A stretch of DNA of 64,000 bases from Euglena gracilis (Eukaryota): positions 49,021,847-49,085,846 of the forward strand of contig CP154954.1 in the NCBI GenBank assembly GCA_039621445.1, written 5' to 3'. Below are positions 25,471 through 64,000 of this stretch, piece after piece; within the stretch, counting starts at the first letter, position 1, and every line of letters starts with the position of its first letter. The translations under genes and the position numbers were made by a program. The notes under the pieces were generated by a model, which made no database searches, was not told where the DNA came from, and was given only the letters and a program-made list of their open reading frames with translations.

Positions 25471-25504
<34 letters not shown>

Positions 25505-30908: not shown

Positions 30909-32849
30909 CCCCACTGAGGGTCCGACTTCGTTAATGCACCCCCCAACAACACCCCCCAACAACACAAATGTCACAGAGGCCTGTGCAGTTCTTCCACCTC
31001 CCCCGCACTGAAATCCAAGGGACCTATTTCTTTGTTATGATTGCCAATGTCGGATTGGGACAAGATGTAAGGTGTCATTAGTAGAAAAACCATCCTGGAT
31101 ACGGGTAAACCCCCACCCCCAGGGCAGGAGTGAGTGGTGGTTTTGCGGGGGGGGGGGGTCAGACCCCTCCTTCGGAGCGAGGGCCCAGGGGGAGGGGGGG
31201 TCCGAGAACCCCTCTCATTCAATACCCTGCCCCCCGGGGTGCTAGTTTTTTTGCCCGAAGTCCCATCCAGGGGGGGGGATTAACAACTGAATTTTTGCCG
31301 AAAAACAGCCAAAAAACTTGAGGTTGGAAAAGGTTCAAAAATAGCAATACCACAGATTTGAGATGAAGAATCCTTGAACACCTCTTGTGCATTTGACCAA
31401 CGTGAATATCTCAATAAAGCGTGAAGTGTCCAAAACCGATGAAGCTGATTTCTTTATTTGTCCCACCAACCCTGCAAAACATCATCTCCAAACCTGACGT
31501 TGCGAACGTATCTGCATGCATATGCCTGTGATGCCCATACAAATCACAAACCGCAAACACCAGGTCATCCCAAACGCGGTTTTAGTGGCACGCACTTGAG
31601 CATTAATGTATAGCACTCCTCAGAAAATTTTTTTGCAGCCCTTTGATGTCAACGTTGCAGAGAAAAGCCAACACAGATCAGTCTAAACAAATCCCCCCCC
31701 TCCTCTGTGACAACTCCGCCTCACTCTGTGTGGCGTGCAACTGCCAGCGTCGACGGAGTACCTCAGTTCTGACGCACCACTGCCCCATCCCTTTGTCCGC
31801 GTCCTCGTGCCCCCTCCCCTCCCCTGCAGTCGTCAGTCATCCAGCGGAGGTCATCCCTGTTGACGGTCCAGGCAAGCCACAATGCATGGGGGCCGGCCGG
31901 GATGAAGGGTGCGGCGTTGGAGCCACCGGCTTAGGCTACAGCGGAACCAACGCGCGCTGCCGGCCCAACGAACCGACAGCCTCCCCCAACCCCCAATGCA
32001 CCGGCCAGCGCTGCCCTGACCCTCCACATCAAACAGGAGCACAATAGCCCAGGCCAATGAATAAAACCAATGAACTCCTGGCGGTCACAAAGCGGTCGGG
32101 GGGGGGGGGTGGCTTTTGAGTCGGTTTCAGGAAAACTAATCTCAAGAACCAAAGGGATTTGACAAAAACTTTGCATTTTGAGGAGGACTTCCCCAAGACA
32201 GAAGGTTTTTGGGATTCTTTTCAAGAAAGGTCCTTTCTGAATTTTTTGGGCCAAGAAATGGGAATGACCAACTTCTCAAGTGGACTTGCCAACTTGTTAC
32301 GCAGGCCAAATGGTATGAGCAACTTCCCAACGGGAACGCGCAAGCACGCAGGTGAGGAATTTTCCTTTGTCGCTACTTGGGCTACACCACCTGAAAGAAG
32401 CTCTTGTGTCTGCATTTCTGTATTAATGGGGAAATCCATCAAGGCAGCCTTGGGACAAAAATGTGGAATGGGGAGGCAAACTGAGAAAGGAAACACCACA
32501 GGTTCGTGAGGCTTGCCTGAAGGGACCGGCACTCGAGCCATGATGCAGCTTGTTCTGGGTGGCAAGAACCATGCACGATGCACAAACACTGGTTGAAAGC
32601 AACAGGGTCGTCCCGTTCACGCTTATTTCAAATAGGAAAAAAATTTAAAAAAAATGTTCAAATTATTACAAAAAATATTGGTCAGAATACCTTAGCATGC
32701 CTTAAAAACCAACATGCAAAAAAAATCCTAAAAGAACTTTTTCCATCATGCCAGACAAATTGCTGGAAAAACCCCTTCTGCCATGTCGGTCCCTTGGACT
32801 TCTCATCTTCCTTCTGGACTTCTCATCAAACAGCGTGCATTTATGGGGC

Positions 32850-32980
32850 GACGTTCAGGGCCCGCAGCATGTCCAGCAGGGGGTGGGGGTCCTCCAGTTC
32901 AGCGGACGGGACGGGGTCAGTGGGAGAGGGCAGGGAACAGCCCCGGAGGGCGTGGCGGGCTTGGCGGCAGCGGCCTCGGT
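32850..32980 (-). CDS. Paralogue A, uninterrupted LLDMLRALNV exon (function unknown)
   Basis: RGRCRQARHALRGCSLPSPTDPVPSAELEDPHPLLDMLRALNV. Differences from 46476-46610 include five synonymous third-position changes in this frame. Confidence 0.8.
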
Positions 32981-33229
32981 CTCTCAGGCAGGAAAAACTT
33001 GTGGTTGAGACACATTGAGCACGTGCTGTTCCAATATCATTGGTCTGGTTCAAACATGGGATGTGGTGAACACCACAATACCTGTCTAAATGAAGTGTTC
33101 TCTGTTACAAAACAACTGGGGGCTTTCGCAATCCTTGACCAGCTGACAATCATATGGGACAATGCCCGCTCAGCCATGCTGTGAAATTATCGCCACAAAA
33201 CAGACACGGGGGGGGGGGGAGGGGGTCGG

Positions 33230-33440
33230 CGACCACTTGGGCTGGCTTGGCGAGGCTGAGGAGGCAACTGGGCTGGAGAGGTCCGCCTCCAGCGCCGCCC
33301 ACGCTGGCTGGGCGGGGGTGTCGCTCAATGGGGGCTGCGAGGCGGTGGGCTGGTCGGCCTGTGGGGCGCCGGCAGAGCCCCGGGGGTTGAATGGGGCGGC
33401 AGTGGGACGCAGGCGGAACGGGATGACATGGGCCGGGGCG
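33230..33440 (-). CDS. Paralogue A, probable Pro/Ala-rich exon
   Basis: PAHVIPF...AALEADLSSPVA is homologous to PAHTFPF...AALEADLSSPAA at ~46810-47015; boundaries approximate. Confidence 0.6.
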
Positions 33441-33856: not shown

Positions 33857-33883
33857 GAGGGGTTTTTTAAAGACCGGGGGGTC

Positions 33884-33918
<35 letters not shown>

Positions 33919-34096
33919 GGGGGGGGGGGGGGTCCCAGGGGACCCACTCAAAAATTGCGAAAAATTGCAAAAATAGCACCTTTTCAAAAATTTTCAGCGC
34001 CGAAAAGTATATCCCACTCCCCCGGGGAGAGAGGGGGGGGCTCGGCCAGACCCACCCACCCACCCCCCCGGGGGTCCACAACTAAAAAAACCCCTG
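33857..34096. mobile_element. hAT-type MITE with very long C/G homopolymer
   Basis: TIR (C/G)AGGGGTTTTTT; perfect 8-bp TSD GTGTGTAA; related right end at ~27520-27679. Confidence 0.88.
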
Positions 34097-36473: not shown

Positions 36474-36626
36474 CCCCTGGCCGGGGTGCAGCTTGCTGCA
36501 CTTCCCGCCGAACTTGCACTGCCCCGTCATGGCCCACACCTCACACACCTGCCGGCCGGCCTGGGCCTGCACCGCCCCGGACAGCTGCCGGTAGTCCGAG
36601 AGGTCCGGGTGGGGGAACCGGCACCG
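36474..36626 (-). CDS. Paralogue A, exon with end of zinc finger 1 and all of zinc finger 2 (uninterrupted)
   Basis: RCRFPHPDLSDYRQLSGAVQAQAGRQVCEVWAMTGQCKFGGKCSKLHPGQG. Confidence 0.92.
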
Positions 36627-37267
36627 GGGAAACTGCCCCCGCCTCCGCCCACGAAGAGAAAGGCAAATGCCAGCATCCCTCACCCTGCCGGCCGTCTTTA
36701 AGCAGCTGCACAGAGGATACGGGTCAGGTGTCACTGCAAGTCTTAACATAAAATGCATTGCCTTTCGGAGTTTCGTGTCTGACAACAGGTTCTCTTTGAC
36801 ATTTCTCCCTGAAAAGAAGCACAAGAACCAAAATGCAAAGTCTGCGGGTTCTTATGGATTTTCCGGCTGCTGAAGGAATGCTGGGAGACCTGGCTGCAGC
36901 GTCGACGTGGGAAGAGAATGGGTCAGAGATTTGTTTAATGACTCTCCCCCCAAAGATTTTTTAGGACCCAGGGGGGGTCTTGTTGGGTGGAATGGGTTCA
37001 TCAAGGGAAAGTACTGAGCAGAAAAATCCCAGAAAGAGTTTCAAAACAAACCCAAATATAATGATGATGCTTGAAAACCAGGGGGTTGGGAGTGCAGGGA
37101 AGGGGATGCAGGGCTGCAAAAAGGCTGCTGGCCGGCTGGACCGCAACACTTTCCCTCCAGCTTGAGCGACGTTTGGGCCTTGGGCCGTAATTACGTTGCA
37201 AAGCGCCGTAAATCATGGCGACAGGAGCAGGGGGTCGGAACAAATACAGCGAGGCGGGGGCCGGTTG
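36627..37267 (-). other. Shared non-GT-AG intron in zinc finger 1, paralogue A (641 nt)
   Basis: Ends pair GCCCCCGCCTC / GAGGCGGGGGC; same position as in paralogues B and C. Confidence 0.75.
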
Positions 37268-37545
37268 CCGCCGCACGCAGCGGCCCTTCAGGTAGTCGAG
37301 GCACACCCGCGGCTTGTCCGGCTTGTCCTCCCGGGGTTGCTGTGGCGGCTTTGCCTCGAAGTATTCACTTGGCCCGTGTGCACACCTCGGGGGGAAACAA
37401 CTGGACTGGGGTGGCCGGCACACCACCGCTAAGTGAAGCCTGGGTCGTGCCCTTCGCCCCGACTAGCTGCATAGGAGTGCCCTCAGCCCTGACGCCTTCG
37501 AGGCCGGCCACGGAGGGGAGGGAGCAGGCCGGGATGCGCATCCTT
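37268..37545 (-). CDS. Paralogue A, exon(s) with first half of zinc finger 1
   Basis: RMRIPA...EAKPPQQPREDKPDKPRVCLDYLKGRCVRR. A frame change near 37370-37420 may be a small intron, a homopolymer error or decay. Confidence 0.75.
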
Positions 37546-39520: not shown

Positions 39521-41010
39521 GGCAGGGGGGACGGGAAACAAGCAGAGAGGGGAGGGAAATGAAAACGGTTTTTCTGACACGAATTTTCCCACCCCCCAGG
39601 GGACCCGGGTGGTGGGTCCGGCAAACGCGTCCGCACCCCCTGGCGGGTGTAACCTTTCAACAATCCCTGTTTACGACATCACAGGACAGGAACAGCCATT
39701 ATCATCATCATCATCATTATCATCATCATCAGACGCCTTAATAATTCTTGAAAAAAAAATGTGTTAAAGAATGCCAAAATTTTTTTCCTTAAAGAACCTT
39801 AAAAAACCTTTAAAAAAAACCCTTAAAAAATCTCGTCCTGTAAACTGTTTCGAATTTTGAGCAAAAAAATAAAGTCGCAATGGTTGTCAGGCCCCCAGTA
39901 CCGGCCGACCTGTCAGGTGACAGTTTCCCACGGGTGGGGAGAGCGAGTGACCTTTGAAAAGGTGTCCTCTGATCGGGGCGGGGGGGGGGGGGGGGTTGTT
40001 TGACATAAGCGGGTCGCTGGACATAGGGGGGGGGTACGTATGGACACAGGGGGCATATGTGGATGCATACATACATGCATACTTCCTTTTTTTTGCGTCC
40101 TCCACCTTTGAGGGGAATCAAAACATTTACAAAACGGGAAACAGGAAACACTCAACCTCAACATCCCCTCCACCCCCTGGAGGATGGTCAACAACCAGTT
40201 TCTAAGATCTCATGCTAGCAGTGCATGCTGCAGCTGTTGTAGGATGAGGGGCATTGCAACCATGAGGAAAATGGGGATTAGAGGCGAGGCAGAGGCGGAT
40301 TGGACCAGCCTCCGAGACACAACCGTGGCTCTGCTGCTAACACCTTGGCAAAAGTTGAAACTTGTAAAACAGGTACCGGACGGAAAATCTTGGACAGCTT
40401 GACTCTGGGCAACCAGGGGATCCCCTTGGGGGGGGGGGGGGCATCCAGCTGGCTGGAAACACTGGTGCTGCTGGCTGGATAAACGGTACCCGGTTGGGTG
40501 GACCCCCCACAGGGTAGGGTCCCCTCTGGCTTAAGAATTTCCCAAGTTTTGCCAAAACCCATGGAACTGTCATCCACTAGCCACTGCCATCAAATTTACT
40601 TACCTTCACGGTTGGAAACCGTCTGGATCCCTTGACTTGCAGGTTGTGGTGCAAATGGTTTTCAATTCAGAAACAAAACCAGACAGCTTTTTTGGAGATC
40701 GACCCCAAATGCTGGAAACCGAAACCCTACTGCCCAACCGCACCAGCAGCAGCGCCGGACAGGGAAGGGGCAGCGCTGGAACCACCGGCTTAGGCTACAG
40801 CGGAACCAGCGCAGGCTGCCACCCAATGGGCACAACAGCCATATACAAATGGAATGAATTGGGGCCAGGGACGTTTGGGATAAGGGCGACCACCAGATGA
40901 GACTTAACCCCCACCCTGCCAGCTGACTGGAAAAAATAGCTGTTCAAATAACATGTCCCTTCCCTTCACGGAAAACAGCGGATAAGTGGTGTGCACAAAA
41001 AAAAACACTA

Positions 41011-42016
41011 CCTCCCCCCCCCCCTTTGTCCAACGACCACTAATGTTCGTCTCCGACCGGGGGGGGGGGGTCGTTAGACAAGGGGGGTAGGCCCCAGGTC
41101 GGCAATAAATTGGCCACATAGGGGGGGTATTTGGTCATTTTGGACAACTTTGGGCTATTTTCGGCATTTTTGGCGACTTCTGCCATTTTTTGGCCACTTT
41201 TGGCCATTGTTTGGCCACTCTTGGGATTATTTTGGGTCACTTTTGGCCATTTTTTGCCACGTTTGGTTTCATTTAGCCATTCTTGGCCACTTTTGGCCAT
41301 TTTTGGTTTCTTTAGCCATTTTTTTGACCACTTCTAGCCATTTTGGGCAACATTTGGCCACTTTTGGCAATTTTGGGCCACTTTTTGCCCCAAATTCAGA
41401 CCATTTTTGCCCATTTTTGCCCATTTTTGGCCAACTGGAATCAAATTTCAGCCGTTTGGAACAATCTCACACTTCCATAAACTTCAGTCATTTTGGGGTG
41501 ATGTGTTACCATTTTGGGGAGCTTTGGCCTTTTTTTGTGCCGTTTTGGCATTTTCTGCCATTTTAGGGTGGTAATCCCAAACAAATTGCAAAAAAAAGCA
41601 TCACTGGAACATGCAAACGCAACTAAACCGAAAATAAAATCACACAATTTTTTTCGCAGTACTGAACCAACATCGTATACAAAAAGATCGTCTCTGACCG
41701 GGGGGTCGTTAGCAGGCTTCTTTTTAAGACCCCCGGGGGGGGAGGGGGGGGTCCCCCCCCACCCACCCAGGGGGCGCGGGACCCCCCCCGGGGGGGGGGG
41801 GCGGGGACCCCCCAAAATCGGGCCCGCTAAAGGCAATTTTCAAAAATTTTCGCGCCGAAAAGGTATACCCGGCGCCTCCGGCGCGGGACCCCCCCCCCCG
41901 GGGGGTCCGGCCTGGACCCACCCACCCCCCCTCCCCCGGGGGGGGGGGGGGTCAGGTGACTTAAAAAGAAGCCTGGTCGTTAGACAAGCCCGGTCGTTGG
42001 ACAAGGGGGGGGGAGG
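41011..42016. mobile_element. TA-flanked element hosting a nested hAT MITE
   Basis: TA|CCTC(n)TTTGTCCAACGACC ... GGTCGTTGGACAAG(n)AGG|TA; uninterrupted right end at 48637-48702. Confidence 0.8.
41713..41975. mobile_element. hAT-type MITE
   Basis: TIR CAGGCTTCTTTTTAAG; perfect 8-bp TSD GTCGTTAG; the empty-site homologue at ~48660 has a single GTCGTTGG. Confidence 0.95.
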
Positions 42017-42550
42017 TATGCATCGGAAATGAATGATGAATGCGTTCTTTTTTGAGATTTTCAGCAAAAATAATAATAACAGCATTCAAAGCCAAAATTG
42101 CTTGGTATGGTTCGGATGGCTTGGTATTAGTATGGTTATTATGGTTATTATAAGAAAGGTGGGGAAAAAGGATCCACCTCCCATGTTGTTCAATGACCAC
42201 TAATATTCATCTCTGACTGGAGGGGTGTTGGACATGAGGGACAACAGAAAACTGGCCACTCGTGGGGATATATGACCATTTTTGCAGGGGACGATGCACA
42301 ACACCCCTCAAAATCTGCAATGCAGGTTCTCGGGCATGACAGTTTCCGGGGGGCGGGGGGGGTAGGGCCCCCGGACTGGTGCATATTTTTGCTGAAGAGG
42401 ACTTTTTCAACTCCTCCTTGGAAGAAAATGTGGTGCAAACTTGAAAATGACATGGTTGGTGGCCCAGAGCATACAATTTTTTACCGACCCCGGGGGGGGG
42501 GCGGGGGAGGGGGGGTCACTCCACTTTTTGAAAAACCAGTCAGTCACTAC

Positions 42551-43286
42551 CAGGCTTTTGCTTAAGGACCCCGGGGGGGGGGGGGTACTCGCTAGCCAAT
42601 CGGCTAGACACTGGAAAAAATGGACTAGCTAGACCCCCCTCCCCCCCCGGGGGGGTCCGGGGGTCCCCCAACTGGAAAAAAAAATTTCCTCCGGGGCTAT
42701 GCGCCGAGGTGGAAATGAGGTTTTTAATAGGTTTTTGGCTGATTTTGTTCCAAAATTTCCCAAATTGGCCAAAAACGGGCATTTTTGGCCATTTTTGGGG
42801 GTCCCAAAAATTTTTTCTGGCGCAGGTCCATGCTTGTGCTTACCAACCGGGGGGGGAGGGGGGGGGTGCTATAGGGTGCCTGCCCCTAGCAGGCACAACC
42901 CCCCCCCGGGGGGATAGGGGTCCGGGCCGGACCCAGAAAATTTTCATTGAAAATGGCCTTTTCCGGGCCCCCGGCGCCTTCGGCGCCGGGGTCGGAGGGG
43001 GGTGCCTGCTAGGGGTAGGCACCCCCCAAAACCTTACCACCCCCAGGGGGGGGGACGGATCGGGTGCTATGGGGTGCCTGCCCGTAGCACCCACCCCCCC
43101 CCCCGTGGGGTAGGCACCCGACTAAGCACAAGCCTGCGCCGGTCACTGGAAAAAAAATTCCACTAGCTAGCCCTGCTAGCAGACCCCCTGGGGGGGTCTG
43201 CTAGAAATCCCACTAGTCAAATTGGGACTAGCTGCAGTCCAGCCCCCCCCCACCCGGGGTACTGCAATCCCTTAAGCAAAAGCCTG
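42551..43286. mobile_element. hAT-type MITE
   Basis: TIR CAGGCTTTTGCTTAAGG; perfect 8-bp TSD GTCACTAC; relative at ~58400-58677. Confidence 0.93.
42829..43136. mobile_element. hAT-type MITE nested in 42551-43286
   Basis: TIR CA(T/G)GCTTGTGCTTA; TSD CGCAGGTC / CGCCGGTC; empty site CGCCGGTCACT at ~58594. Confidence 0.88.
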
Positions 43287-44774: not shown

Positions 44775-45959
44775 CAAGCACCTATGACAGATTCCAAATT
44801 TTATCCCGCGGTCGGCTGCGGTCGGCCGCGGTCGGCTGCGGTCGGCAGCGGTCGGCAAAATAGTTGGCTGTAGGTGGGGGGCAAGCCAACAAAAAATGAG
44901 CATATATCACAATCACACAATCCACTGTTGCCGACTTTTGGCCACTGTTCGCTGCTTTTGGCCAGTTTTTGATGCTTTTGGACTGCTTTTGGCCACCGTT
45001 GCCGACTTTTGGTCGATTTTTGCTGCCTTTGCCCATTATTTCCTGCCTTTTGCTTTCTTTTGGTCACTTTTGTTGCTTTTGCCCACTTTTTGCTGTGTTT
45101 TGGCTGCTTTTGGCCAGCTTTTGCTTTGCTTCGACCTCTTTTGACCATTTTTGGCCTCTTTAACCCACTTTTGACCACTTTTCTCTGCTTTTGGCCATTT
45201 TTACCCACTTCTGGCCACTTTCAGGCCACTTTAAGCGTCTTTTGTTGCTTTTGACATCAAGAAGACTAAAAATGGCCTAAAAGTGGCAAAACATGGTTAA
45301 AATGGCCAAAAGTTCCAAAAGCAGGCAAAAATAACAAAAAAAAAGCCCAAAAATGGCCCAAAATGACCCTGCTTTTGGCCGATTTGGGTCACTTCAGCAG
45401 CTTTTGTTCACGTTTGGCAACAAACTGGCGCAAAATGCTCAAAATGGTCAAAATTGGACCAAAAAGAGACCAAAAAATGGGCAAAAATAACAAAAGAAAA
45501 GGTCAAAAGTGGCTTTAAATGGTCAAAAATGGCCCTAAATGGCCCCAAAATGGCCCAAGAGCAGGACAAAATGGCCCAAAATTACAAAGAAGTGGGCAAA
45601 AAGTGGCCAAAAAAAGTCAAAATAGGTCAAAATGGGTGAATTATGATGACAAATGGGCCAAAATGGGGACAAAAGCGACCAAAAATGGCCAAAAAATGGC
45701 CAAAAGTGGCCAAAAGTGGCGACATGAGCCAGATGAGCCAGAAAAACCTCAACATCTGGGATAAAAATGAGCCTAATTCCTCATTCTCACTGAAAAATTG
45801 ACATCAATCAGAAAAAAAGTTGCGCGGTCGGCTGCGGTCGGCTGCGGTTGGCTGCGGTCGGCACCCCACCAGTGACAGTCCTGAAACCCGCGGTCGGCCG
45901 CGGTCGGCTGCAGTCGGCTGCGGTCGGCTGCGGTTGGCTGCGGTCGGCATAGGTGCCTG
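44775..45959. mobile_element. hAT-type non-autonomous element, family A, copy 2
   Basis: Same TIR as 21397-22618; a different perfect 8-bp TSD CCTGTCGT. Confidence 0.95.
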
Positions 45960-46475
45960 CCTGTCGTCTAAAAAAATAACAACTGGCTGCTGTTGCTTAA
46001 AGAGATTGCTGTTCTTTCACTCCCACCTTCCAACACCACCCTGCATGCAACCCTGAGGTTGGCCAACTGGAGGAGACCAGAAGAGAAGGAATACCAAGCT
46101 GTGAGGCCAGTTGAAATGGACTGACGCCAATGAGTTCTTGTGCTGTACAAATGTGATCGCAAAATTTTGCAAACACAAAGGCGAAATTACACCAGGGCCA
46201 CCCACATACAAATAAACACACTTATTAGGAGTGCCACATCGATTGCGTCGAGGACCAACTTCCGCACACACGAGGCGATTGACAACTGCTAAATTTCTGA
46301 GAAGACTTATGCGGCTTTGGAGCTGTTTTTGTTGGGACGAGGCACTTCCATGTGAGCATGGCATCGAAACAGTACATTGCAGGCAGGCAAACAGGGGCGA
46401 ATCCATCACACCGGCCCAGCCAACAATGGCGTCGGTCCCTGGGGCACGGCATTCCTCCGGTTGTTAGCAGGCCGC

Positions 46476-46610
46476 CACGTTCAGGGCCCGCAGCATGTCC
46501 AGCAGGGGTTGGGGGTCCTCCAGTTCGACGGAGGGGAAGGGGTCTGCGGGGGACGGCAGGGCGCAGCCCCGGAGGGCGTGGCGGGCTTGGCGGCAGCGGC
46601 CCCGGTGACC
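46476..46610 (-). CDS. Paralogue B, uninterrupted LLDMLRALNV exon
   Basis: GHRGRCRQARHALRGCALPSPADPFPSVELEDPQPLLDMLRALNV. Confidence 0.8.
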
Positions 46611-49600
46611 ATGGGGGGATTGGGGGGGGGGGGTCTGGGGTACGTTGGGGACGGCTGCTTCGCGGATTTCCGCGGGAACCTCGCAAGAGCATCGGGTCGA
46701 GTTGGAATTAATAGGAATGTTTGGGTGCGCCGGGAAAAATGGTTTAACATTTGCCTTGAGCCAATCAAACCCACCTCCCCGCCGCCAGTGCAGACCTTTG
46801 TTTCAGGCCAAAGGGGGCGGCTGGGCTGGAGAGGTCGGCTTCCAGCGCCGCCAACGCCACCGGGGTCGGAGGGTCGCTTTCCGGTTGTGGCGGGCCGGAA
46901 GGCGGGGTACCCGGGGTGTCCCGCTGGCCAGCGGAGGTGGCGCCGGGTGATTCCCAGAGGTCCGTCACGTTGGATGTTGTCCGCCGGCTGAAGGGAAAAG
47001 TGTGGGCCGGACGTGGCCAGGCATTGACTGACGAATTGCAGGCCCCCGCGGATGTCGGTGGAAAGACCCTGCCTATTATCAATAACACAAATGCTCTGAT
47101 TTTATGACCAAAAATGCCCTCAAACGCCAGAAAACGCCTTGAGAGAAATCTTAAAAAGGTCATTCTGAGAGAATTTTTCAAACAAAAATGGAAAGGCATG
47201 CCCGAAAGATCTCCCATGAAGAAGGGAGGGTCGGGAGGTCGACCCCCTCAACGTTCTTTCAATGGGCTGTGCATGGGCTTTGCAATCGCTTGAAAAATAT
47301 TCTTTTCAATGAGGACTACCTCGTTTTTTTTCTCTTTTCTGTCTCTCACACGTGGGGATTATTTTTAAGACAGGGGGAGGTGGACCCACTGCTTGGAGGT
47401 CAATTTCGGGCATTGCACCGGAAAAAAGGCCAAAAACCCAAAAATGGGCAAAACCCTGCCTCCGGCTGGGGACCCACCATGCTTTCAGGGGTGCCCCTGA
47501 AAGCATGGGGGCGGACCCACCCCCTCCCTCCCTTTTAACCGGGGTCCAAAAAAAAAATACCTGGTCCTGAGTCAGTCACAGGGCTGTTCGGGAAATCTGG
47601 TGGTGGTGGTGGGGGGGACCACACCCGGGGTCTCCTGGGGTGGTCGGCCATTCTAAAATCCAACCCATTTCCAGCGGATAAATTTTTTCCCATTTGGGGG
47701 GGACACTCTACCCCCCCCCCCGGAAACTGTCACCTGACAGGTTGGTCAGTACCGGGGACCCTGACAGTTTCCCGGGCGGGACCCTGACAGGTTCTCGGGC
47801 ATTACAATTTCCCCCGGGGGGGGGGGGTAGGAGGTCTAGCTAATGGCATTTTTCTAGCTACCCGCCCCCCCCCCCCTTGTCGTACGACCGGGTTCCTGTA
47901 ACCTGTGACGGGGGGGGGGGGTCGTAACACCCCCATGACCTGCAACCTGTGACCGGGGGGGTGGTCGTAAATGAGGGGGCAGTCGTAGGTAAGCTGGTGT
48001 TAAATTTTTCGCACCTGCAACCTGTGACCAGGGGGGGTGGTCATAACACCCCCATAACCTGCAACCTGTGGCTGGGGGGTGGTCGTAAATGAGGGGTGGT
48101 CGTACGACAAGGGGTTTCCCCCCAGGCCAGCACAACCCACAAACCCTGAATCCCCCCACTGTTTCTCATTGGCTGATGAGTTGGCTCCAGAACATACAAT
48201 TTTTTTACCGACCCGGGGGGGGGGGGTCACTCCACTTTTTAAAAACCAGTCAGTCACTCATTTTCGGAAAACCAGCCAGTCACTACCCCCCCCCCCGCCG
48301 CCAGGGGCTGACTGGTTTTTGGCCCGGACCCCCTCCCCCCCCCCCGGGGGGTCCACCAGGGGTGGGCAAAAATGGCTTGAGTGACCCTGCCGCCGAAGGC
48401 GCCGGAAAATTTTTTGGCCTAAACTGGCCTAAAGTGACTGAAAAGTGGCCACATATTATATCAGAGGTGCTTGCCCACAACGACACCTTCTGCAAGGTCA
48501 CCATCCGAGCGACGATAGAGAACACAACAACCCACTGGGTAGTGGTTCATCACAGAAGTCAGAGAAGCTGCAAAGAACAAAATCAAAAGAAAGAACATTA
48601 TCAAGTCTCACTTCCCCAAGATCGTATACGAAAAGATCGTCTCTGACCGGGGGGGGGGGGTCGTTGGACAAGCCCGGTCGTTGGACAAGGGGGGGGGAGG
48701 TAAGGAAAAAAATACCAGTGACCCGCAAAACCTGCCAAAACCGCCCATTTTTGGCAATATGGGAGGGGGGCTGCAGTTTCAGAACAAATTAACACCCAAA
48801 AAACACAGGGTAATACCCAATGAAAAAGGGAAAATAGACTAGAACCGTGAAAATGTTGCCCAAATTTTTTTCACAGCCTTCGCCATTGCCCTATTTTAGT
48901 GATTTTTTGCCAACCCCCCCCCCCCAGGGCCAAAACCCAATCAGTATTTTTGGTCCTATTTTGGGTTTTTGGCTGGGGGTGGGGGGGGGGGGGCTGAGTA
49001 ACTCACTAACCCATTGCCAAACCTCCCAAAAAAAAATAGCCTGGGTTGGGTTTGGATGATCCGCAGATTCATGTTCGACACGCCACAGGCGACACATGGG
49101 ACGAGAACTGTGAGGGGCTCTCGTCAATTCCTGGCTGGCGCGGCGATGAGAATGTTGCCAGATCGGCTGGGGTGGGCCCCCACAGGGGCGTCCCGGGGGC
49201 GTCAGGGGCAGGGGCAGGGGCGGGGCAGGGTGGCCGCTCTGGAGGGGCTGCCGGGCTCGGGCACACTCCGCTGCTCGGTGGAGGAGGGGGATCCCCCAAA
49301 AAATTCGTGGTTCACTTGTGGACACCAAAAGAAAAGTTGTGGTTCATTTGTGGACACCAAATCTTTGTTAGAAGTTTTTTGCGCAATTGTGCCAATTCTG
49401 AAAATATTTTTTGCACTCCATTTTGCGCTCCTAAAAACGAAAATCACCCTTTTGGGCGCCTTCAAAAACCTGGACTCCAGAGCTTTCACGGAACAAGAGA
49501 AATTTTTTGGTGTTTTCAGTGAACCACAAAATGGCAACCTTGGTGGACTACACTAAATGAATATCTGACCTGGACTGACGTTGTCTCTGCGACCGCCAAT

Positions 49601-51872
49601 GGAAAATGGACGCCTTAAAACTTTTTCAAAAAGTTTAAAAAAACCCTTAAAAACCGGTAAAGATTTTCAGAATTTTTGCCTTAAAAAAAATGCCGGGGCC
49701 TCCCTCCCCACCCAGCCCTGGGGGGTGAGTGTTGGCATTTCCCGAAATACCTCTTCCTTGCAATCCACATTGGCCCCGGACCCATGCACCCTCCCCAGGG
49801 AGTCTTCCGAGTCAAAGAGACGCCTAATCCCCCCGTCTAAGAAACAGAAAAGACGGGTAAGAACAGGGGGTGCTTGGAAAGGGGGTTGGTGAGTTCCATA
49901 GAAATGGTGCTGAGACAGGGGGTGGACTTGTCCGATGTGACCCACCCAGTTGTGACCCAGGCCCCAGTTGTGATGCTGTACCCTGCCAGAGGGAAAAAGG
50001 TTCGCGAATGCCACCCAATGGCTGGCCGAAAGACGGCAGCGGAGCGGTAGGCGCTGATTGGACAGGTTTCGTGATGATGTACCGGGCAGGGGCCCCCAAG
50101 CATGGGGGGTGGGTGGGCAGGGGGGGAGGGGGCGGGGGCAATGGCAACCGCCTCCCCCAGCCTCCGCTTCTCCGCTTCGACACCTTAAATGGTCCAAAAC
50201 TGGGGCCTTTGTCATGAACTGCAACTGCAGTGCAGATCATCTCGCTCCCCTCCCCAGACTAGTTCGGCACATACCCCCCCCCCCGGGTGCTTGGCATTGA
50301 AGGTAAGGCCAGGGGCCAAGTTTGCACGTTAAGCACCTTGGCAGCTTCTTTGTGAAAAAGGTCAAAGGCCAACTTTAAGGGGGGGGGCAAGTTTGCACGT
50401 AAGGGCCAAGAGGCCTGGGAGGGGGGGGTTGGAAGGTTCTCACAGGTCTGACCTCAGCATTGAAAGTTTGCTGAGACAGAGAGGGATTAGTGGTTAACCG
50501 TAGTCGGGGGTCAAATCCTTATCAATACTCATCAGTAAGTACCTGTATCGGTAGTTATCTGTGGTTGCTGACTGGGAATATCCATCCAGAAATGGCTGCA
50601 ACTAATGGGAACAGAAAGATTGATCATTTATGTTGCCTCAGAGATCCCGAGAATGAGGAAAATGAGGGGAAAAAATGCCAAAGGCAACCAGAAGTAGCCA
50701 AAAGTAACCAGAGGTCTCCAGAAATGGTCAAAAGCAGCCAAAACAGCCAGAAAGAGCCAGAACTGGCACACATGGGCCAAAAAAAAAACATGGCAAAAAA
50801 ACAGTCGGAAAAAGCCAAAAAAAATGACCAAAAGTGGCAAAAGGTGGATAAAGGTGCCCAAAAGATGCCAAAAGCACCCAAAAAGCAGCCAAAAACAGTT
50901 GAAACTAGACAAGGCAGCCCGAAACAGCACAAAAAGGAGCTAAAACTGGCAGAAGTGGCCTGAAGTGGGCAAAAAAATGCGTAAAGTTGGCGAAATTTTT
51001 TATTTGGGGGGAGGTCAGACATCTGGACCCAGCAGGGATTTGTGCATATTCTGAAATAGATAACTGCAGACAACTGACAAAAGACAACAGACAACCACAG
51101 ATGAATGCGGATAACTATGCATAACTACAGATAACTGTGATAAGCCAGAAATTTTGGCCAGTGAGGATGAGCTCATGAGCTCATGAGTCATGAAGCTCAC
51201 CTATTTTTGGTCACGCCTCTTTGGGTCCGTTGCTGAAAGTCCCGAGGGGGGGTTCTTATTTTTGGGGACGTACATTTTTGCATCTTTGCAGTATGCTTTG
51301 GCCGGAAAAAGCCTTCCTGCGGAAGGCTCCGAAAGTGGGTTCAAAAAAGGACGATTTTTGTCAATGAGCAAAAAAAAAACTGTTTCAAAACTGGCAAAAT
51401 GGGAAATTCAGGGTGAACTGAGTGCAACCGTGAACAATACACTATTACAATTTTTTTTAAAAAATGGTGAAATGGTGCAAAATCTGGCCCAATGCCAGAA
51501 GCAATTGCTGAGTGTGGAAATGGAACGGCAGTTAGATGAAAACACGAAGAAAGTGGAGGATGGAGGTTTTCAGGGGTTGAGGAAAACCGAGAGGGAATTT
51601 TCTCAGCTGTCGTTTTTGGAAAAATCTGTAGGAGAAATGAACGTGGCGGTACAGCAAATGGGGGAGAAGGAAAAACAGCCGGAGATTGCTGTTAATCAGG
51701 TCAAAAGGTGCAGGTTAAAGGTTAAAAGGTCAAAAGTGCAGCTGTTTTTCCACCCAATGAACCCAACATTGCTCTATGCGGCAGAAAAATAGAGGAGTCT
51801 AAACCAGGCACGCATATACTCACTCGTCAAAACTAACAAGTGGGGAGGCCTCTCTGCCCAGCACGACGGGGG

Positions 51873-52025
51873 CCCCTGGCCGGGGTGCAGCTTGCTGCAC
51901 TTCCCGCCGAACTTGCACTGCCCCGTCATGGCCCACACCTCACACACCTGCCGGCCGGCCTGGGCCTGCACCGCCCCGGACAGCTGCCGGTAGTCCGAGA
52001 GGTCCGGGTGGGGGAACCGGCACCG
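51873..52025 (-). CDS. Paralogue B, exon with end of zinc finger 1 and all of zinc finger 2 (uninterrupted)
   Basis: Same translation as 36474-36626. Confidence 0.92.
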
Positions 52026-53340
52026 GGGGGACTGCCCCCGCCTCTGTTACACATGGTTGGGCTGGAAAACCAAAATGCCATGCAAGCCGGCCCACCCAAC
52101 TCGCCGGCCAATCCACAGTTCAGCTGGCATGGAGACAACACAAACAGGATTGTACGGGCACACCTCACAAAAAAACGCGACGCAAATAGGCTGAATTTGA
52201 CCAACCTTCTGGGGGTGTTTTCAGAGTGCCCTGGAGGGCCTCGGCAGGCAGCCCTATCCCCCCCCCCCCGGGTGGGGGTTGGTGCCTGACTGGTGGCGGG
52301 CCAAAAAGTGCCCAAAATGTGCTTTTCTGGGCTTCCGGTGCCTTCGGCGCTGGTTGGTCCTTGGCCGAGTGCTCAGGCACTTTTGGTCATGCCCCCCCCC
52401 CCCGGGGGGGGTCGGATCTGGGTGCCTTGGAGTGCCTGCCAAGCACCTATAGTTGACCCCCAGATTTTCGCCATTTTCGGCCATTTTCGGCCATTTTCGG
52501 CCATTTTCGGCCATTTTTGGCCATTTTTTCCCCCATAGGTGGGGGTTAAAGCTGCCTCAAAATTCTTTCATACCAACAATGCATTTTGATCATTCAGTCA
52601 ACATGCAAACAGTCGTGACAAGCTAACGCATCCAAGGAGGTCCGTTCGGAATGGGTGCTCAGGAATTAACGAGGTCAAAGAGTTTTTTGTTGCATGTTGT
52701 TGTATGCAAATGCAAGGTTTTGGGAATAAGGTCCTTTATTCCTGCCAGAGAGGCTCTTGTCCACTTTGATATTTTTTGCTGGGGGTTCTTGGGACGCTTC
52801 ATGAGAGTGGTTGGCACATGACATATTAACCACAATGGTGGGTGGCGACGCCAAAACTGGTGCTTTTCTCTTCAAGCCTGTTGGCGTGGATGCTTTTCAC
52901 AAACAACTTCCCCTCACCTATTCCAACTTGATACCCCAAGCAACATTGTTTGATGATGGCACTGTTAGATCCCATCCACTTGTGTGCAATAAACCTAATG
53001 CAGGAATCACCCTATATCTATATCTATATAGAATATAGATATAGATATAGATCTGTATATATGTGTGTGTGTGTGTGTGTGTATGTGTATATATATAGAT
53101 AGATAGATAGGCACTGTTAGATCCCATCCACTTGTGTGAACCTAACGCAGGAATCACACCTTTAACAGAGAAAAAAACGCTTCACATACTTTGCCTGGTT
53201 GCACCTTGTCACCACAATTTTCTGAAATGTCATCAAACCCATCTTTGGCCCAAATAACCCATTTGGTGGTGGTTCACTGAGCAGCATGTGTTCCACGGTT
53301 AGGCATAACGGCAGGAGAAGAGAGGCATGACTTCAAAGAA

Positions 53341-53424
53341 GCCTTGATGTAAAATTTCATCCGTCATGTTGAGACGATCATCCGTCTGGATATGGCGAAA
53401 TTGGGAGAAAGTGCGCTCGGCTTG
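53341..53424 (-). pseudogene. hAT transposase C-terminal remnant (catalytic Glu / dimerisation domain)
   Basis: QAERTFSQFRHIQTDDRLNMTDEILHQG matches the hAT pattern ERxFSxxxxIxTxxRxx(L/M)xxExL. Confidence 0.8.
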
Positions 53425-53466
53425 AAATGTGTGCATCTTGCCCAATACCTGGATCTTGTCAAGATG

Positions 53467-53745
53467 TTAATCTTGTCCAGTACCTGCATCCACTGCATCT
53501 TCTCCAGCATCTGCATCTTGTCCAATATCTACATCTTGTCCAGCATCTGCATTTTGTACAGCATCTGCACCTTGTCCAGTGTCGACACCTTGTCCAGTGT
53601 CTGCATCTTGCCCAGTGTCCACATCTTGTCCAGTGTCTGCATCTTGTCCAGCATCTGCATCTTGTACAGCATCTGCATCTTGTCCAGTGTCGACATCTTG
53701 TCCAGTGTCTGCATCTTGTTCAGCATCTGCATCCATTGCATTGTG
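53467..53745. repeat. 18-bp minisatellite (ATCTGCATCTTGTCCAGC-like), about 15 units
   Basis: Direct inspection; explains the 6-aa periodic ORFs in several frames. Confidence 0.9.
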
Positions 53746-54732
53746 TCCAGAATCTGCAACCACTGCATCCGCTGGTTCCCAACCTAGCAAATTTTATACT
53801 CCGCCCATCTTCTCCTTTTCCCCGACCCCAGCCCGCCCATCCCACTCCGCAACACTAGCAAATACCAGTCACAGACCCCATCTGACCCTGACCGCAAAAG
53901 GCCCCCAAAAGCAACCAAAATGACCTAAAATGGCTTCAAATAACCTAAACTTGCCCAAAAACGCCAACAATGTCACAAAAAAATTGTTAAAAATTACCCA
54001 AAATCACCAAAATGGCGCAAAATGGCCAAAAATGCCATAAAGTATGCTCATATTGACCCAATTGGCCCAATATTTGCCAAATCAGTGCAAAATATCCCCA
54101 AAATTAGCAAAAATTGACCCAAAATGGCCCAGACGGGTGTAATGCTGGAGGTTTGTGGAGAAATTATCCCAAAAAAGGGTTTAATTCTTCAAAATATACA
54201 AAAAAAATGCCAGCATCACCCTTGTCACCAAAATTTTCTGAAATGCCATCAAAACGTTCAGCTTTGGTCCAAATAACCCTTTCGGAGGTGGTTCTTTGAG
54301 CAGCATGTGTTGCAGGGCCAGGCATAATAACAAAAGCAGAGAGGCTGCACAGAGACAAGAATCAGTCGCCAGGAAAAAAGAAACTGTTAGGCAAAAGAAC
54401 TCGAAAAAAAAATTGCACCAAATTTTTTCTCATTTTCGGCCATTTTCGGCCATTTTCGGCCATTTTCGGGACCCCCACCTATAGAGCCCAAAATTTCATT
54501 TTCGGCCATTTTCGGCCATTTTCGGCCATTTTACTGTAGGTGCTTGGTGCCTACCCAGACAGGCACACCCCCGGGGGATGGGGTCGGCACCTTGAAATTC
54601 AGCCTGGACACAAAAAGAACAGGAAAAAGAGCAAAAAGAAATGCTTTTGTTTGTCCCCCCCCCATGCAGGCTGTACAGGCAGGCCTCCAACCGCGAGATA
54701 ATTGTGGAGGTCAGCGAGGCGGGGCCAGGGCG

Positions 54733-54909
54733 CCGCCGCACGCAGCGGCCCTTCAAGTAATCGAGGCACACCCGGGGCTTGTCCGCCTTGTCCTCGCGGG
54801 CCGGCGGGGATGGGGGCTTCGCTGCCTTCGCCTCAGTGAACGAGCCGCCCAGCGGCCCATCGCTGGCGATGGGGCCCATGGCGGGGTTCGAGAAGGCCGG
54901 GATGCGCAT
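54733..54909 (-). CDS. Paralogue B, exon with first half of zinc finger 1
   Basis: MRIPAFSNPAMGPIASDGPLGGSFTEAKAAKPPSPPAREDKADKPRVCLDYLKGRCVRR; synonymous changes versus A and C (GAT/GAC, TTG/CTG). Confidence 0.85.
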
Positions 54910-55054: not shown

Positions 55055-55674
55055 CAGGGCAGAACGGGAAGGCCTGGTGGGGGGGGTCGACCCCCCACCC
55101 ACCAGAGCATTTTCACCGATTTTGGGAAAACGGAGATTTTGGCCAGAAAATTTTTTGAATTTTCTTTGAAAAATGAACCCAAAACACATGATTTTTTGAT
55201 GGAAACGTACATTTTCCCACAAAAAAAAATCTCAAAATTTCAGGGTTAAAAATTGGCAGTTTTTAGGATGGGGGTGAAAAAAACGAAGGTCAAAAACAAT
55301 AGACCAAATTTTGGCAGAGTCAAATTTTACTGACATTTTTTCTCTTTGAAATTTTTTGGACTTTCAATGGCATTTTTGCTTCAAAAACCTCTCAAAATCA
55401 AAATGAGAAAATGTTGAATTTTTGGAAGGTGTGAAAAAATGAGGGTTTGAGGGGTTTTTGGGGGGACCTCCCATATGGGTCCCAAAATGGGTCAAAAAAC
55501 ACCCGGCACCGAAAGCGCCAGAAAAATTTTTTCGGGTCCAAAAATTGGTGCACCCGGATATACAGGAAGAGGTGGTGGGGGGGGGGGGTGGACGCCCCCC
55601 CCCCCACCCACCATGCAGGGGGTGGGGGTGGGTCGACCCCGCCCCACCGTTTGGCCGATTCCCATTCTGCCCTG
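55055..55674. mobile_element. hAT-type MITE, family B, copy 2
   Basis: Same TIR as 5230-5856; TSD GGGGCAAG / GGGACAAG. Confidence 0.9.
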
Positions 55675-56621: not shown

Positions 56622-57067
56622 CAGGGGTTTACTTCAGACACCACGGGGGGGGGGGGGGCCACGGGCCGGCTTGAAAAAGCTGCTGGCTAGGGGTGGGGTG
56701 TCTGGAGGGGGGGGGGGGGGGCCGGTCGGCCGGTTGGTTGGGAGATGGACCCGGCGGGCACCCCAAAAAAAGCCCGAAAAAGCCCAAATCCAGCTGGGTT
56801 GGCATTTTTCAGCCAAAAAATAGGAGGCAAAAACCCAAAACCGGCCTCAAATGCCATTTTTTTTGACCATTTTTGACCCATTTCCCCAAAAATTTTGGCG
56901 CTTTGCGTCGAGAAATTTTTAGGTCCACCCGACTGGTCCGAACTTTATTTCAGCGGACCCGGGGGGGGGGTCCGCAGACCGGCTGGGAGGTGCTAGCTGG
57001 AAAAAAAGGAGCTGGCTGGCTGGATCCCCCCAGGGGACGGGTCCCCTCTGGCTTAAGGAAACCCCTG
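56622..57067. mobile_element. hAT-type MITE (older)
   Basis: TIR CAGGGGTTT(A/C)CTT; TSD ACACCCAA / ATACCCAG (6/8). Confidence 0.7.
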
Positions 57068-60569: not shown

Positions 60570-63184
60570 CCTGCTGGACCCCCCAAGGGGTCTGAAAAGA
60601 ATGCATGTTATGCAGGTCTTTGCGTTTTTTGGTGGCATTTCTTCAAAGGCTTCACAACTGTTCCTCGTTCACGACCAAGATGAAGTGCGACCCCCCCCCC
60701 TGCGCCCCCAACACCCCCAGAAGTGGCCAAAAGCAGTTAAAGGGAGCAAAAAGCAGCTAAAAATCAGACCAACTGACCAACCACGCTGAAATAACCCTCC
60801 AGTGTTTTTTGTGCATTGTTTTTTTACAAAATTTTCTTTCTCCAAGGCTGCGGGGAGGCATTGGGGAAAAAATTTGACAGAATTACAAAAGTGGCCAAAA
60901 TGGCTTGAAAGTGGCAAAATGTGGGGGAAATTGGCCAAAAGCAGCCAAAAAAAAGGCTTAACGTGGGCAAAAGTGGGAAATTATGGACAAAGTTTGGCAA
61001 TGCTTCCAACAAGTCACACATGGCTTCTGAGGTGCAGGCAAATATTTTTGGGTGGGCGCTTCCACAGCCCCGCTGGTGCAGGGAATCCTTTTTTTTAAAA
61101 AAAAGTCGTGCCGGTGCAAGAATTAATGATTCATTGTTGCATTCCCTTCTTTCACCAATTTCCAAAAGCGGGGGGGTCGCGGGGGGGTCGCGGGGGGAAA
61201 CGGGTTTTGCGGCAGGTCATGCATGACTTATGTGACGTCATTCTTTCCTCTACTTTTAGATCCCAATTTGGAATTTGCGTGCCATTTGGGTCCAAAAGTA
61301 GGTCCAATTAGGAATTTGGGACGAGTTTCTCGCACTTTTGATTCCTAATTGAGTGGCAGATTCCCATCCGCCCGCCCCTTGTCGTACGACCGGGTTCCTG
61401 CAACCTGTGACCGGGGGGGGGGTCGTAACACCCCAATAACCTGCAACCTGTGACCGGGGGTAAATGAGGGGTGGTCGTAGGGGGCGGGCAATTAATATAA
61501 ATTTTTTGTACTTTTTGGAATCTCGAATCGGTTTCAGAGTGGGGGCGCGGGGGGGGGGGGGTTGCGGAGGGGTCGCGGGGGGAACACCCCCTCTGTTGAC
61601 TGTTGGTGACTTTTTGGGGGGCGAGAGTGGGCAAAACTGGCCAAAACTGGACAAATGCAGTGAAAAGTGGCCACCACTCCCCCTGAGTGTTCAGCATTGG
61701 CCTCCCAGCAAGAGTCCCAAACATGGCCAATTGTGGTTTTACATTGGGAAGTTTGCAAAAATGGCCAACTGTGGCCAAAATTTGCCGTGTTGGGGGGGGG
61801 AGCAAGGTATTACAATGACAGATAATAAAAACAGAAAAATAACACTTCCGACACATAGCTTTTGGGGTAAAAAGCCACACCACACTTTGCTCTTTCTTCC
61901 CAAAACTGAAACCTGTCTTCACACATCATCCCCACTGCAGACAACCATCCCATTCTGCAACATCACAACTGCCTTCTGTGGCATCAACATTGCATCTCTG
62001 ATAATGCAATTCAATCAAGATATTTATTTCAACCAGCTGCTCGTCAATGCCAAGCTTCTCTTGATCTCAAAATCAATCAAATGAATTCTCTGTGGAAAAA
62101 GCAGGAAAACTTGACAACTTTTTGGTTGTTGTTTATTTACTGATGGCATTCCATTGCTGTACAAAAAGCACAAAAAAAAGCAAGGATCCAGGAAAATCAT
62201 TAATTACCAATTAGAAGAGTCCTTTTGGACAATTTTCTCCATCCTTTTGTCCGCAATCTATAAAACTTCAAAACTAAAAACATAAAGTCTTTGTGTGGAC
62301 AATTTTCTCCATCCTTTTGTCCGCAATCTATTCTTCCAAGAAATTTTGTTGTGTTGTCATGCGCCACACATTAGCCTTGAAGAGTTGGGAGTTTTTGGAG
62401 AATTTGTTTTTTCCTTCATTGTGACAGTTTCTCGAACTTCCATTTTTTGAGTTTATTTTTTTCGTATTTCGATCACAAACCCCAGGAATTTTGCCAGGTG
62501 TTTGGAACCCCTCCGGCAACAAATCCCAACAAAGTCCGACAAATCCCAACGAATCCTGGAAGGCGCCCCCCCCATCAGCTTTCCGAAGGATTGAGGGAGT
62601 GGAATAGCTCAGAGGGGAATGTAGCTCATGCACATCAGTTTGCCGGTGGATGTTACTCAAAATCCCTGCCACACTTCTTTCCTTCCATTCTGCCAGACAT
62701 TCCCTGGACACATACCGATACAAGGAAGCACTGGGTATGTGAGGCCAGTGGAAAGGGACCGACAAGACACTGATGCCCAGAAATGTGTGAACCACATGCC
62801 GATTCGTGTCCCGTTCCCTCCACCCCAACACCACATCCGTGCTCTCACCCAGGTGCATGCCACATGTGCACAAAATCCGTGTACAAATCTTGGGAGAGTC
62901 TTTTCAGAAATCAAACGGAGAAACAATCCGCCGCCATTGACCTTTTTTCAGGTGAGGTTGGCCCCCAAATTTCCTGGAGAAGAGTTGGTGGATTTTGAGC
63001 GTTGTGTTCAGTATTGTTAGCGGCGACGATACATTTATTATTCCTTGAGTCTACACAGGCAAGCAAATGTATTTTCAAACAAAGAGGAGGGAGGAGCGGG
63101 TTGTGTGAGTAAGACACCACACAGACGGTCTTCAAACAACCGTCGCCATTCCCCAGGCAGAACTCTCAGGGTTCAGTAGCTGGG

Positions 63185-63226
63185 GACGTTCAGGGCCCGC
63201 AGCAGGTCCAGCAGGGGGTGCGGGGC
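63185..63226 (-). CDS. Paralogue D, 3' part of the LLDML exon
   Basis: APHPLLDLLRALNV. Confidence 0.8.
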
Positions 63227-63731
63227 TTCTGCAGGCTTCTTTTTACCAACCCCCACCGGGGGGGAGGAGGGTGCCTTGTGCCAAGGGGTTCCTGCCCACA
63301 ACAGGCGGGTCGGTTTTGGAGCCCAGCAGTGCCTGTGACCAAGCAAATGTTCCCACAAAAAAAAATCCCTTAAAATTGCCATTTTCGGGCCCCGACACCT
63401 GCGTCACCGGGGGGGGGGGGGAGGTGCTTTAGCACTACCCACCCCAAAAACCCGACCCCCCAGGGCGGGTCGAAAATGCCCAACCCCCCTGCCTGTTACA
63501 GCATCCACCTGAGGGGGGCAAAACTCCTTACCTCCCCCCCCCCTTGTCGTTGACACGCCAATGTTCCACGAGAGTGTCGTTGACACGGGGGGTGTGTGTC
63601 AACGACACGCCATGTCAATGTCACTGAGATTCAATAGGTAGTGTTCCAGGAAAGTGTCGTTGACACGGAGGGTGTGTCAACGACACGCCGTGTCAACGAC
63701 AAGGGGGGGGGAGGTAACAAGAGGCCTGGGT
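63227..63731 (-). other. Putative non-conventional intron formed by a hAT MITE (505 nt), private to paralogue D
   Basis: GAG|ACC CAGGCCTCTTGTTA ... TAAAAAGAAGCCTG CAGAA|GCC. CAG at +4..+6 and CTG at -8..-6; TIR 12/14; TSD CAGAGACC / CAGAAGCC. Removal restores collinearity with A and B. Confidence 0.88.
63531..63714. mobile_element. TA-flanked MITE nested at the inner edge of the intron TIR
   Basis: TA|CCTC(n)TTGTCGTTGACACG ... TGTCAACGACAAG(n)AGG|TA; relative at ~25940-26077. Confidence 0.85.
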
Positions 63732-63830
63732 CTCTGGTTCGGCGGAGGGGAAGGGGTCTGCGGGGGACGGCAGGGCACAGCCCCGGAGGGCGTCGCGGGC
63801 TTGGCGGCAGCGACCCCCGTGTCCAGGGCG
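63732..63830 (-). CDS. Paralogue D, 5' part of the LLDML exon
   Basis: GHGGRCRQARDALRGCALPSPADPFPSAEPE. Confidence 0.8.
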
Positions 63831-64000
63831 GTCCTTAAGCAAATAAAAAAAAAAACTCCGCTGTCCCAACACACTCAGTGAAAAATATACCGGAAAATAG
63901 GCAAGAAATTTTGGCATTTTTCAGCGAGGACAGGTCGACATCAGGAAAAAAAATGATTCCTGGCACCCTTGGACCATCGTCCATTCACCCAAATCATCAA

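Follow-up and report, generated by a model that had tools for sequence, protein, structure and literature searches.

The nonconventional introns of euglenids obey a splicing code that has been defined genetically as 5'-N3-CDG/CH'G-N5-6|R(exon)-3' (Nomura et al. 2025, PMC12501133). In that study, the 5' spacer must be exactly 3 nt long and the 3' spacer 5 nt, with +1 on the 3' side as the sole tolerated change, and introns of this kind make up about 72% of those in E. agilis (PMC12501133). Their excision follows that of the conventional introns and releases a full-length circle (PMC11282704). A MITE-like origin was proposed for them in 2014, at a time when, according to the proposal, euglenid genomes had yielded no identified transposable element (Milanowski et al. 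2014, PMC3935182). The idea was restated in 2016, 2018, 2024 and 2025 and is still termed unclear or hypothetical (PMC12501133, in its available part; PMC11170887; PMC11282704; PMC12621601).

One similar case is intron 4 of gapC in E. agilis ACOI 323, a nonconventional intron that was recently gained in one strain and carries eight-nucleotide direct repeats at its junctions; the available portion of the report puts the gain down to possible double-strand-break repair (Milanowski et al. 2016, PMC4770533). In the open-access PMC and bioRxiv literature, we came across no report in which these introns are assigned to a named transposon family, in which free-standing copies are shown to have TSDs, or in which the 3- and 5-nt spacers are equated with a TSD.

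Introners, as Huff et al. reportedly described in 2016, are MITE-derived spliceosomal introns in Micromonas and Aureococcus, and Ds is said, on the authority of Giroux et al. in 1994, to be spliced from maize transcripts. The removal of Ds uses cryptic spliceosomal sites and is usually imprecise. Ds aside, hAT transposons are recognised by 8-bp TSDs and short TIRs that begin with CAG, and the terminal motif of their TIRs is YARNG. Introners have GT-AG borders, are removed by the spliceosome and have one splice site made from the TSD (PMC11282704). Merlin is the one DNA transposon superfamily with 8-bp TSDs that we found described from E. gracilis, and its TIRs have a terminal 5'-GG and read GGTACTTGT... 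in supplementary alignments (PMC8101967).

Here, we analysed a window of 64,000 nucleotides of E. gracilis DNA, about 51% G+C and with abundant G and C runs. We conclude that the 505 nt at 63227-63731 are probably a spliced nonconventional intron derived from a transposon.

Results

An insertion in one zinc-finger paralogue

The minus strand of the window carries paralogous CCCH zinc-finger genes, seen as Pfam zf-CCCH matches at 36435-36851 and 37004-37462 and as exons that are repeated in a self-BLAST comparison. There are at least four paralogues in tandem, spaced about 14 to 17 kb apart, at 16600-25850 (D), 32847-37541 (A), 46467-54909 (C) and 63173-64000 (B). Two EukProt transcriptome-derived proteins match these genes, namely, P0001 (EG_transcript_11334) and P0002 (EG_transcript_18867; 145 aa), with the prefix EG_transcript presumably standing for the Euglena gracilis transcriptome. 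P0001 is 100% identical to paralogue C in one exon and 71% identical in exon 1, and closer copies therefore exist outside the window. For gene A, the protein search returned P0001 and five new proteins (P0003 to P0007), none of which corresponds to A.

In paralogue B, the penultimate coding segment (63732..63805, minus; ending in ...ARDALRGCALPSPADPFPSAEPE) was located by tblastn with P0002 residues 105 to 128. The last coding segment with its stop codon (63173..63226, minus; APHPLLDLLRALNVPSY) was located with residues 128 to 145 at 100% identity. These two segments are separated by the 505 nt. At the homologous site, the alignment shows an uninterrupted last exon in paralogue A (32847..32988, minus; GAACTGGAGGACCCCCAC) and in paralogue C (46467..46589, minus, or 46467-46617 in the colinear comparison). 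Both are colinear with B across the site at 83 to 90% identity and lack the 505 nt.

The insertion is composed of a 497-bp element at 63232..63728, delimited by its TIR arms, and 8 additional nucleotides, 3 on the 5' side and 5 on the 3' side. On the gene strand, its borders read ...CCAGAG|ACCCAGGCC...GCCTGCAGAA|GCCCCG, and the sequence across the intron, set out in codons, is ...GAA CCA GAG|ACC CAGGCCTCTTGTTA...TAAAAAGAAGCCTG CAGAA|GCC CCG CAC.... Its two arms agree at 12 of 14 positions (16 of 20 by the scan described below), and the arm at 63728-63715 on the minus strand, CAGGCCTCTTGTTA, has 2 mismatches in 14 relative to the plus-strand arm at 63232, CAGGCTTCTTTTTA.

The element is flanked by octamers that are identical at 6 of 8 positions, consistent with a decayed 8-bp TSD. 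By our own arithmetic, the probability of at least 6 of 8 matches is about 0.004, and an offset control gave at least 6 matches in 2 of 165 pairs. The left copy, GGCTTCTG (63224..63231, plus; CAGAAGCC on the gene strand), contributes its first 5 nt, CAGAA, to the intron and its last 3 nt, GCC, to the exon, and the right copy, GGTCTCTG (63729..63736, plus; CAGAGACC on the gene strand), contributes its first 5 nt, CAGAG, to the exon and its last 3 nt, ACC, to the intron. Since the flanks form an 8-bp TSD, the intron amounts to the element and 8 further nucleotides. The two differences between the octamers both lie within the spliced-out parts of the copies, and the original target may have been CAGAGGCC, each copy having since acquired a single neutral change. 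Compared with paralogues A and C, the target octamer has 3 to 4 positions that are different.

The present length of the element includes a second, nested MITE of 184 bp (63531..63714; TIR CCTCCCCCCCCCCTTGTCGTTGACACG...), which is flanked by TA at 63529-30 and 63715-16 and has inverted repeats that are 100% complementary over arms of 23 to 30 nt. It splits the second arm of the intron element after base 14, some 12 to 14 nt from the element end. With the nested MITE removed by coordinates, the second arm reads CTTAACAAGAGGCCTG.

Other paralogues have irregularities of their own. Exon 1 of gene A (37442-37349, minus) has about 90 extra nucleotides relative to C and D; this piece starts with CAGGCTTCACTTAG, a TIR pattern like that of the B element family, and it lacks a CTG on its 3' side (...AAGTGAATACTTCGAGG), which puts it outside the nonconventional code. 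Gene A may be a pseudogene. In the diverged paralogue D (16420-16640, minus), a separate insertion of about 220 nt lies a few nucleotides downstream of the site used in B. This insertion holds the core motif AAGGCAATTTTGAGGGATTTT, which is common to the B element and the reference MITE described below, and no fit to CAG/CTG was found at its borders.

Probable splicing of the insertion

To the two B exons, P0002 aligns by tblastn as ...ARDALRGCALPSPADPFPSAEPE at 63803-63732 (23 of 24 residues) and as (E)APHPLLDLLRALNVPSY* at 63229-63176 (18 of 18 residues), and the sole mismatch falls at the upstream exon border. The C terminus of the protein, ...PSAEPEAPHPLLDLLRALNVPSY / ...KARDALRGCALPSPADPFPSAEPEAPHPLLDLLRALNVPSY, corresponds to the two exons joined exactly, as the initial annotation had predicted for the spliced product, although the nucleotide junction itself is deduced from the peptide. 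As a transcriptome protein carries the joined exons, removal of the B intron from the mature mRNA is supported at the protein level, with P0002 presumably originating from the B locus. The alanine that follows Glu-Pro-Glu needs the GCC of the downstream octamer, so the intron has to include 3 nt or more upstream of CAG. The exact junction is most plausibly GAG|GCC, which is the 3/5 register; GAA-GCC would encode the same protein.

In this register, the intron (63227..63731, minus) reads 5'-ACC CAGG...CCTG CAGAA-3', and the exon after it begins with G. The intron starts with AC and ends with AA, has CAG at +4 to +6 and CTG at -8 to -6, and is followed by a purine (GCCCCG). The earlier reading of the gene strand as ACCCAGG..., the euglenid consensus, was thus confirmed as ACC-CAG...CTG-CAGAA|G. 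GT/GC-AG borders were found in none of the protein-compatible registers, which makes the intron nonconventional.

The B intron directly upstream of the 63732..63805 segment is also nonconventional and ends in CTG CCGCC|A. It lies 74 nt from the insertion and is common to A, B and C. This intron follows the N3-CAG/CTG-N5 code, as do three of the five introns in paralogue C. For the other two C introns (50027..49237 and 54729..52023), the registers that P0001 permits match neither GT-AG nor N3-CAG/CTG-N5; P0001 is 69 to 71% identical there, and one of the two may use CTG...CAG with unusual spacers. The older C introns retain no residual TSD, judging by eye (2 of 8 for 46826..46589, 4 of 8 for 49136..47013, and 3 of 8 for 51881..50082).

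The terminal 45-nt ends of the B intron can form a duplex of -31.2 kcal/mol. The minimum free energy fold of a 535-nt pre-mRNA stretch (-262.5 kcal/mol) lacks this terminal stem, and forcing it gives -252.8 kcal/mol, which is 9.7 kcal/mol worse. From the literature, TIR pairing would drive excision; in silico, this pairing is feasible, yet it lies off the global optimum.

A shared TIR

The reference for comparison is a 263-bp MITE at 41713..41975 with the TIR CAGGCTTCTTTTTAAG. Its TIRs match at 18 of 20 positions, and it is flanked by perfect copies of the 8-bp TSD GTCGTTAG at 41705-41712 and 41976-41983. The flanks of this MITE are repeated on the plus strand at 48616-48654 (94.9%) and 48659-48702 (97.7%), where the element is absent and the octamer GTCGTTGG occurs once. 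This empty-site homologue (48616..48702) lies inside a 2.1-kb intron of paralogue C. The perfect TSD and the empty site that had been claimed for this MITE were both reproduced. Its description as free-standing needs to be qualified. The MITE lies about 4.2 kb upstream of the gene A start codon and outside any recognisable exon, as that term implies, but it also sits inside a copy of another repeat. The filled site and the empty site are both copies of that repeat, so the reference MITE represents an insertion nested within repeat DNA. The surrounding sequence is a fragment of a second MITE family, TA-flanked and Tc1/mariner- or Stowaway-like, with the ends CCTCCCCCCCC(C)TTGTC.... The MITE nested in the intron element (63531-63714) is a copy of this second family, and ends of the family also occur at 41009-41089, 42000-42018, 48684-48702, 26135-26152 and 25939-25952.

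Exact matches to CAGGCTTCTTTTTA occur at three positions in the window, 41713 (plus), 41975 (minus) and 63232 (plus). When up to 2 mismatches are allowed, there are 6 matches against a mean of 0.83 in dinucleotide shuffles, and none of 100 shuffles reached 6. The 14-of-14 identity between the arm at 63232 and the reference MITE, as first noted in the initial annotation, therefore holds. With the nested MITE removed, the second arm also matches the reference MITE end, CTTAAAAAGAAGCCTG, at 14 of 16 positions. The interiors of the two elements align globally with z-scores of 5.3 and 6.1 (200 interior shuffles), values that were computed on low-complexity sequence rich in G/C runs, which inflates such scores. 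A short core like AAGGCAATTTT is common to both, and the window has 13 matches to it, compared with 0.96 expected from shuffles. The homology between the B element and the reference MITE thus comprises the TIRs, a short core and weak interior similarity. Because similarity beyond the TIRs is weak, sequence comparison supports assigning both to a common TIR family or superfamily, rather than regarding them as near-identical copies. The proposed link between intron and transposon family holds in the former sense and not in the latter.

CAG...CTG elements across the window

We scanned the 64-kb window for CAG...CTG pairs that lie 40 to 3,000 bp apart with a TIR match of at least 10 of 12 and obtained 165 pairs. 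Adjacent octamers were identical at 6 or more of 8 positions in 11 pairs (2 in the control) and at all 8 positions in 4 pairs (0 in the control). Besides the B element, the window contains eight further CAGG...CCTG elements, four of them with perfect 8-bp TSDs (5230-5856, 26535-27042, 41713-41975 and 42551-43286). TSDs identical at 7 of 8 positions flank the elements at 18211-20614 and 55055-55674, and those identical at 6 of 8 flank 29101-29288, 56622-57067 and the B element. Of the two other pairs with 6 of 8, one seems to be a shadow of the 5230 element and the other a chance pair with weak TIRs. The element at 55055-55674 is an 84% identical copy of the one at 5230-5856 with a different TSD. 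Apart from the B and 41713 copies, the seven elements measure 188 to 2,404 bp, and none of these seven could be placed in an exon.

When all 64 end trinucleotides were compared, CAG was an outlier, with flanks identical at 7 or more of 8 positions in 6 of 153 pairs, against 7 of 2,226 for CCC and 5 of 1,425 for AAA. GCG...CGC pairs with flanks identical at 8 of 8 positions were rejected as a tandem-repeat artefact. Units of GGTCGGCT GCGGTCGGCCGC are repeated at 21440-21491 and 44818-45901, and 21488-22620 matches 44806-45961 at 91.5%; this 1.1-kb duplicated block is a tandem or segmental repeat and not a TSD.

The TIR families in the window all begin with CAGG: CAGGGCAGAAYGGGAA, CAGGGTTGTATGGGAA, CAGGGGTTT... 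and CAGGCTT..(C)TTAAG. The pattern CAGGCTT...CTTA(A)G is also present in the element at 42551-43286 and in the extra piece of gene A exon 1. As the CA/TG ends are inverted, CA/TG is part of the TIR of the B element. The end CAGGC of the B element family agrees with YARNG at 4 of 5 positions (the fifth base is C, not G), and the CAGGG of other families in the window agrees at all 5. By its 8-bp TSD and short CAG-initial TIRs, the B element would be hAT-like. Pfam detected no transposase among the 132 ORFs of at least 125 aa in the window, and no Rfam families were found in the window.

Elsewhere in the window, a kinesin motor domain exon was recognised at 3006-3554 (minus; Pfam positions 42 to 84 of 327; E value of 8.9e-6, below the gathering score). 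A Pfam search of 147 minus-strand ORFs in 1-13400 yielded no other kinesin exons and no exons split by TSD elements.

Discussion

Taken together, the results favor a course in which a non-autonomous transposon of about 310 bp, with the termini CAGGCTTCTTTTTAAG...CTTAAAAAGAAGCCTG, would have inserted in the last coding exon of B and duplicated 8 bp. A later insertion of the 184-bp TA-flanked MITE would have enlarged it to the present 497 bp. Once transcribed into pre-mRNA, the inverted ends would pair at 12 of 14 positions, and they set CAG at +4 to +6 and CTG at -8 to -6. The nonconventional machinery would cut 3 nt ahead of CAG and 5 nt after CTG, taking out 497 + 8 = 505 nt, and the reading frame would be restored as ...SAEPE|APHPLLD... 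in an mRNA that reads ...GAACCAGAG|GCCCCGCAC. Because the 3 + 5 nt beyond CAG and CTG amount to one 8-bp TSD, splicing of this kind would erase the insertion exactly, and as the TIR ends are inverted, the splicing code would be present in either orientation of the element.

The same observations could in principle be read differently. The copy of B in this window might be an unspliced pseudogene disrupted by a transposon, with EG_transcript_18867 deriving from an element-free allele or a recent duplicate. The support for splicing is at the protein level, and the gene family has close members beyond the window, as the identity of P0001 to C shows (100% in one exon and 71% in exon 1), both of which speak for such a scenario. 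We nevertheless consider it improbable. The B element agrees with the nonconventional code at every point tested, and, in the available part of the genetic study, introns with this code are spliced even at foreign knock-in sites (PMC12501133). The element has also had time to collect 2 changes in each of the TIR arms and in the TSD and to receive a nested MITE. All of the flanking codons (41 of 41) nevertheless agree with P0002, and both differences between the TSD copies fall in the parts that the 3/5 register removes.

Precise intron loss through recombination with reverse-transcribed mRNA occurs in eukaryotes. The intron could accordingly be ancestral to the paralogue family and have been lost from A and C by this recognised process, and its upstream neighbour is indeed shared by A, B and C. 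This would take one or two exact losses, with the intron 74 nt upstream left in place; the diverged paralogue D also has no insertion at the exact B site, and the architecture of TIRs and TSD, along with the TIR identity with a mobile copy, points to insertion. We therefore regard an ancestral intron as very unlikely. We give even less credence to a coincidental or convergent TIR identity, in which the introns themselves would require CAGG...CCTG and the other 10 nt would agree by chance. Weak interior similarity and the occurrence of CAGG ends on many unrelated-looking elements in the window are what such an explanation would lead one to expect. However, the match is 14 of 14, with the observed count reached in none of the 100 shuffles, and it lies exactly at the boundary that the paralogue alignment sets independently. 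The 14-of-16 agreement of the second arm after removal of the nested MITE also argues against chance, as does the presence of CAGGCTT...CTTA(A)G in 42551-43286 and in the exon 1 piece of gene A.

With insertion of a transposon as the preferred reading, the locus supplies an intron with full-length TIRs and a TSD, its absence from paralogues, and a non-exonic sister copy whose TSD is perfect and whose empty site is present in the window. The B element and a nearby mobile copy that share their end sequence would tie the nonconventional intron class to a real transposon family. As the 3- and 5-nt spacers sum to the length of the TSD, they would find an explanation, and we tentatively raise the possibility that the nonconventional splicing code mirrors the integration of one transposon superfamily with CAG...CTG ends and 8-bp TSDs (3 + 5 = 8). 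Extending this to the whole intron class draws on the B intron, the elements in the window, the published spacers and the gapC report, and the introns of paralogue C keep no TSD. If the generalization is true, most nonconventional introns would be fossil hAT-like MITEs, and the direct repeats that blur their borders would be decayed TSDs. Every CAG...CTG insertion, in either orientation, would be erased from transcripts to the nucleotide, and the machinery that splices them may have arisen out of the transposon's own system for recognising its ends, or in defence against it. The hypothesis of a MITE origin can now be put to a genome-wide count, with TSD identity in the -3/+5 register set against TIR divergence.

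Several known systems resemble this locus in part. Merlin shares the 8-bp TSD, but the TIR of the B element starts with CA and not GG; this CAGG start, as opposed to GGTACTTGT..., does not fit Merlin. The hAT MITEs are like the B element family in having an 8-bp TSD and short CAG(G) TIRs and in being non-autonomous. Like the B element, maize Ds is removed from pre-mRNA, but its removal is spliceosomal and usually imprecise. Introners are likewise non-autonomous DNA transposons in exons, with splicing that removes the element and the equivalent of one TSD. The B intron differs from them in its AC...AA boundaries and its CAG/CTG ruler and lacks the GT/GC-AG borders of spliceosomal introns.

The locus also resembles the nonconventional introns of euglenids themselves. 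As far as the available portions of the published descriptions go, these introns share with the B intron the non-GT-AG borders, the positions of CAG and CTG, the 3- and 5-nt spacers and the downstream purine, as well as inverted repeats at both ends, junctional direct repeats and a paralogue-specific position. In gapC intron 4, the junction repeats have the same length of 8 as the TSD observed here; the accessible text on that intron differs in reporting no transposon family or free-standing copy. What sets the B intron apart from the cases in these partial sources is that its inverted repeats are the full 14- to 16-nt TIRs of an identifiable transposon family that also includes a non-genic copy, for which both a TSD and an empty site are seen.
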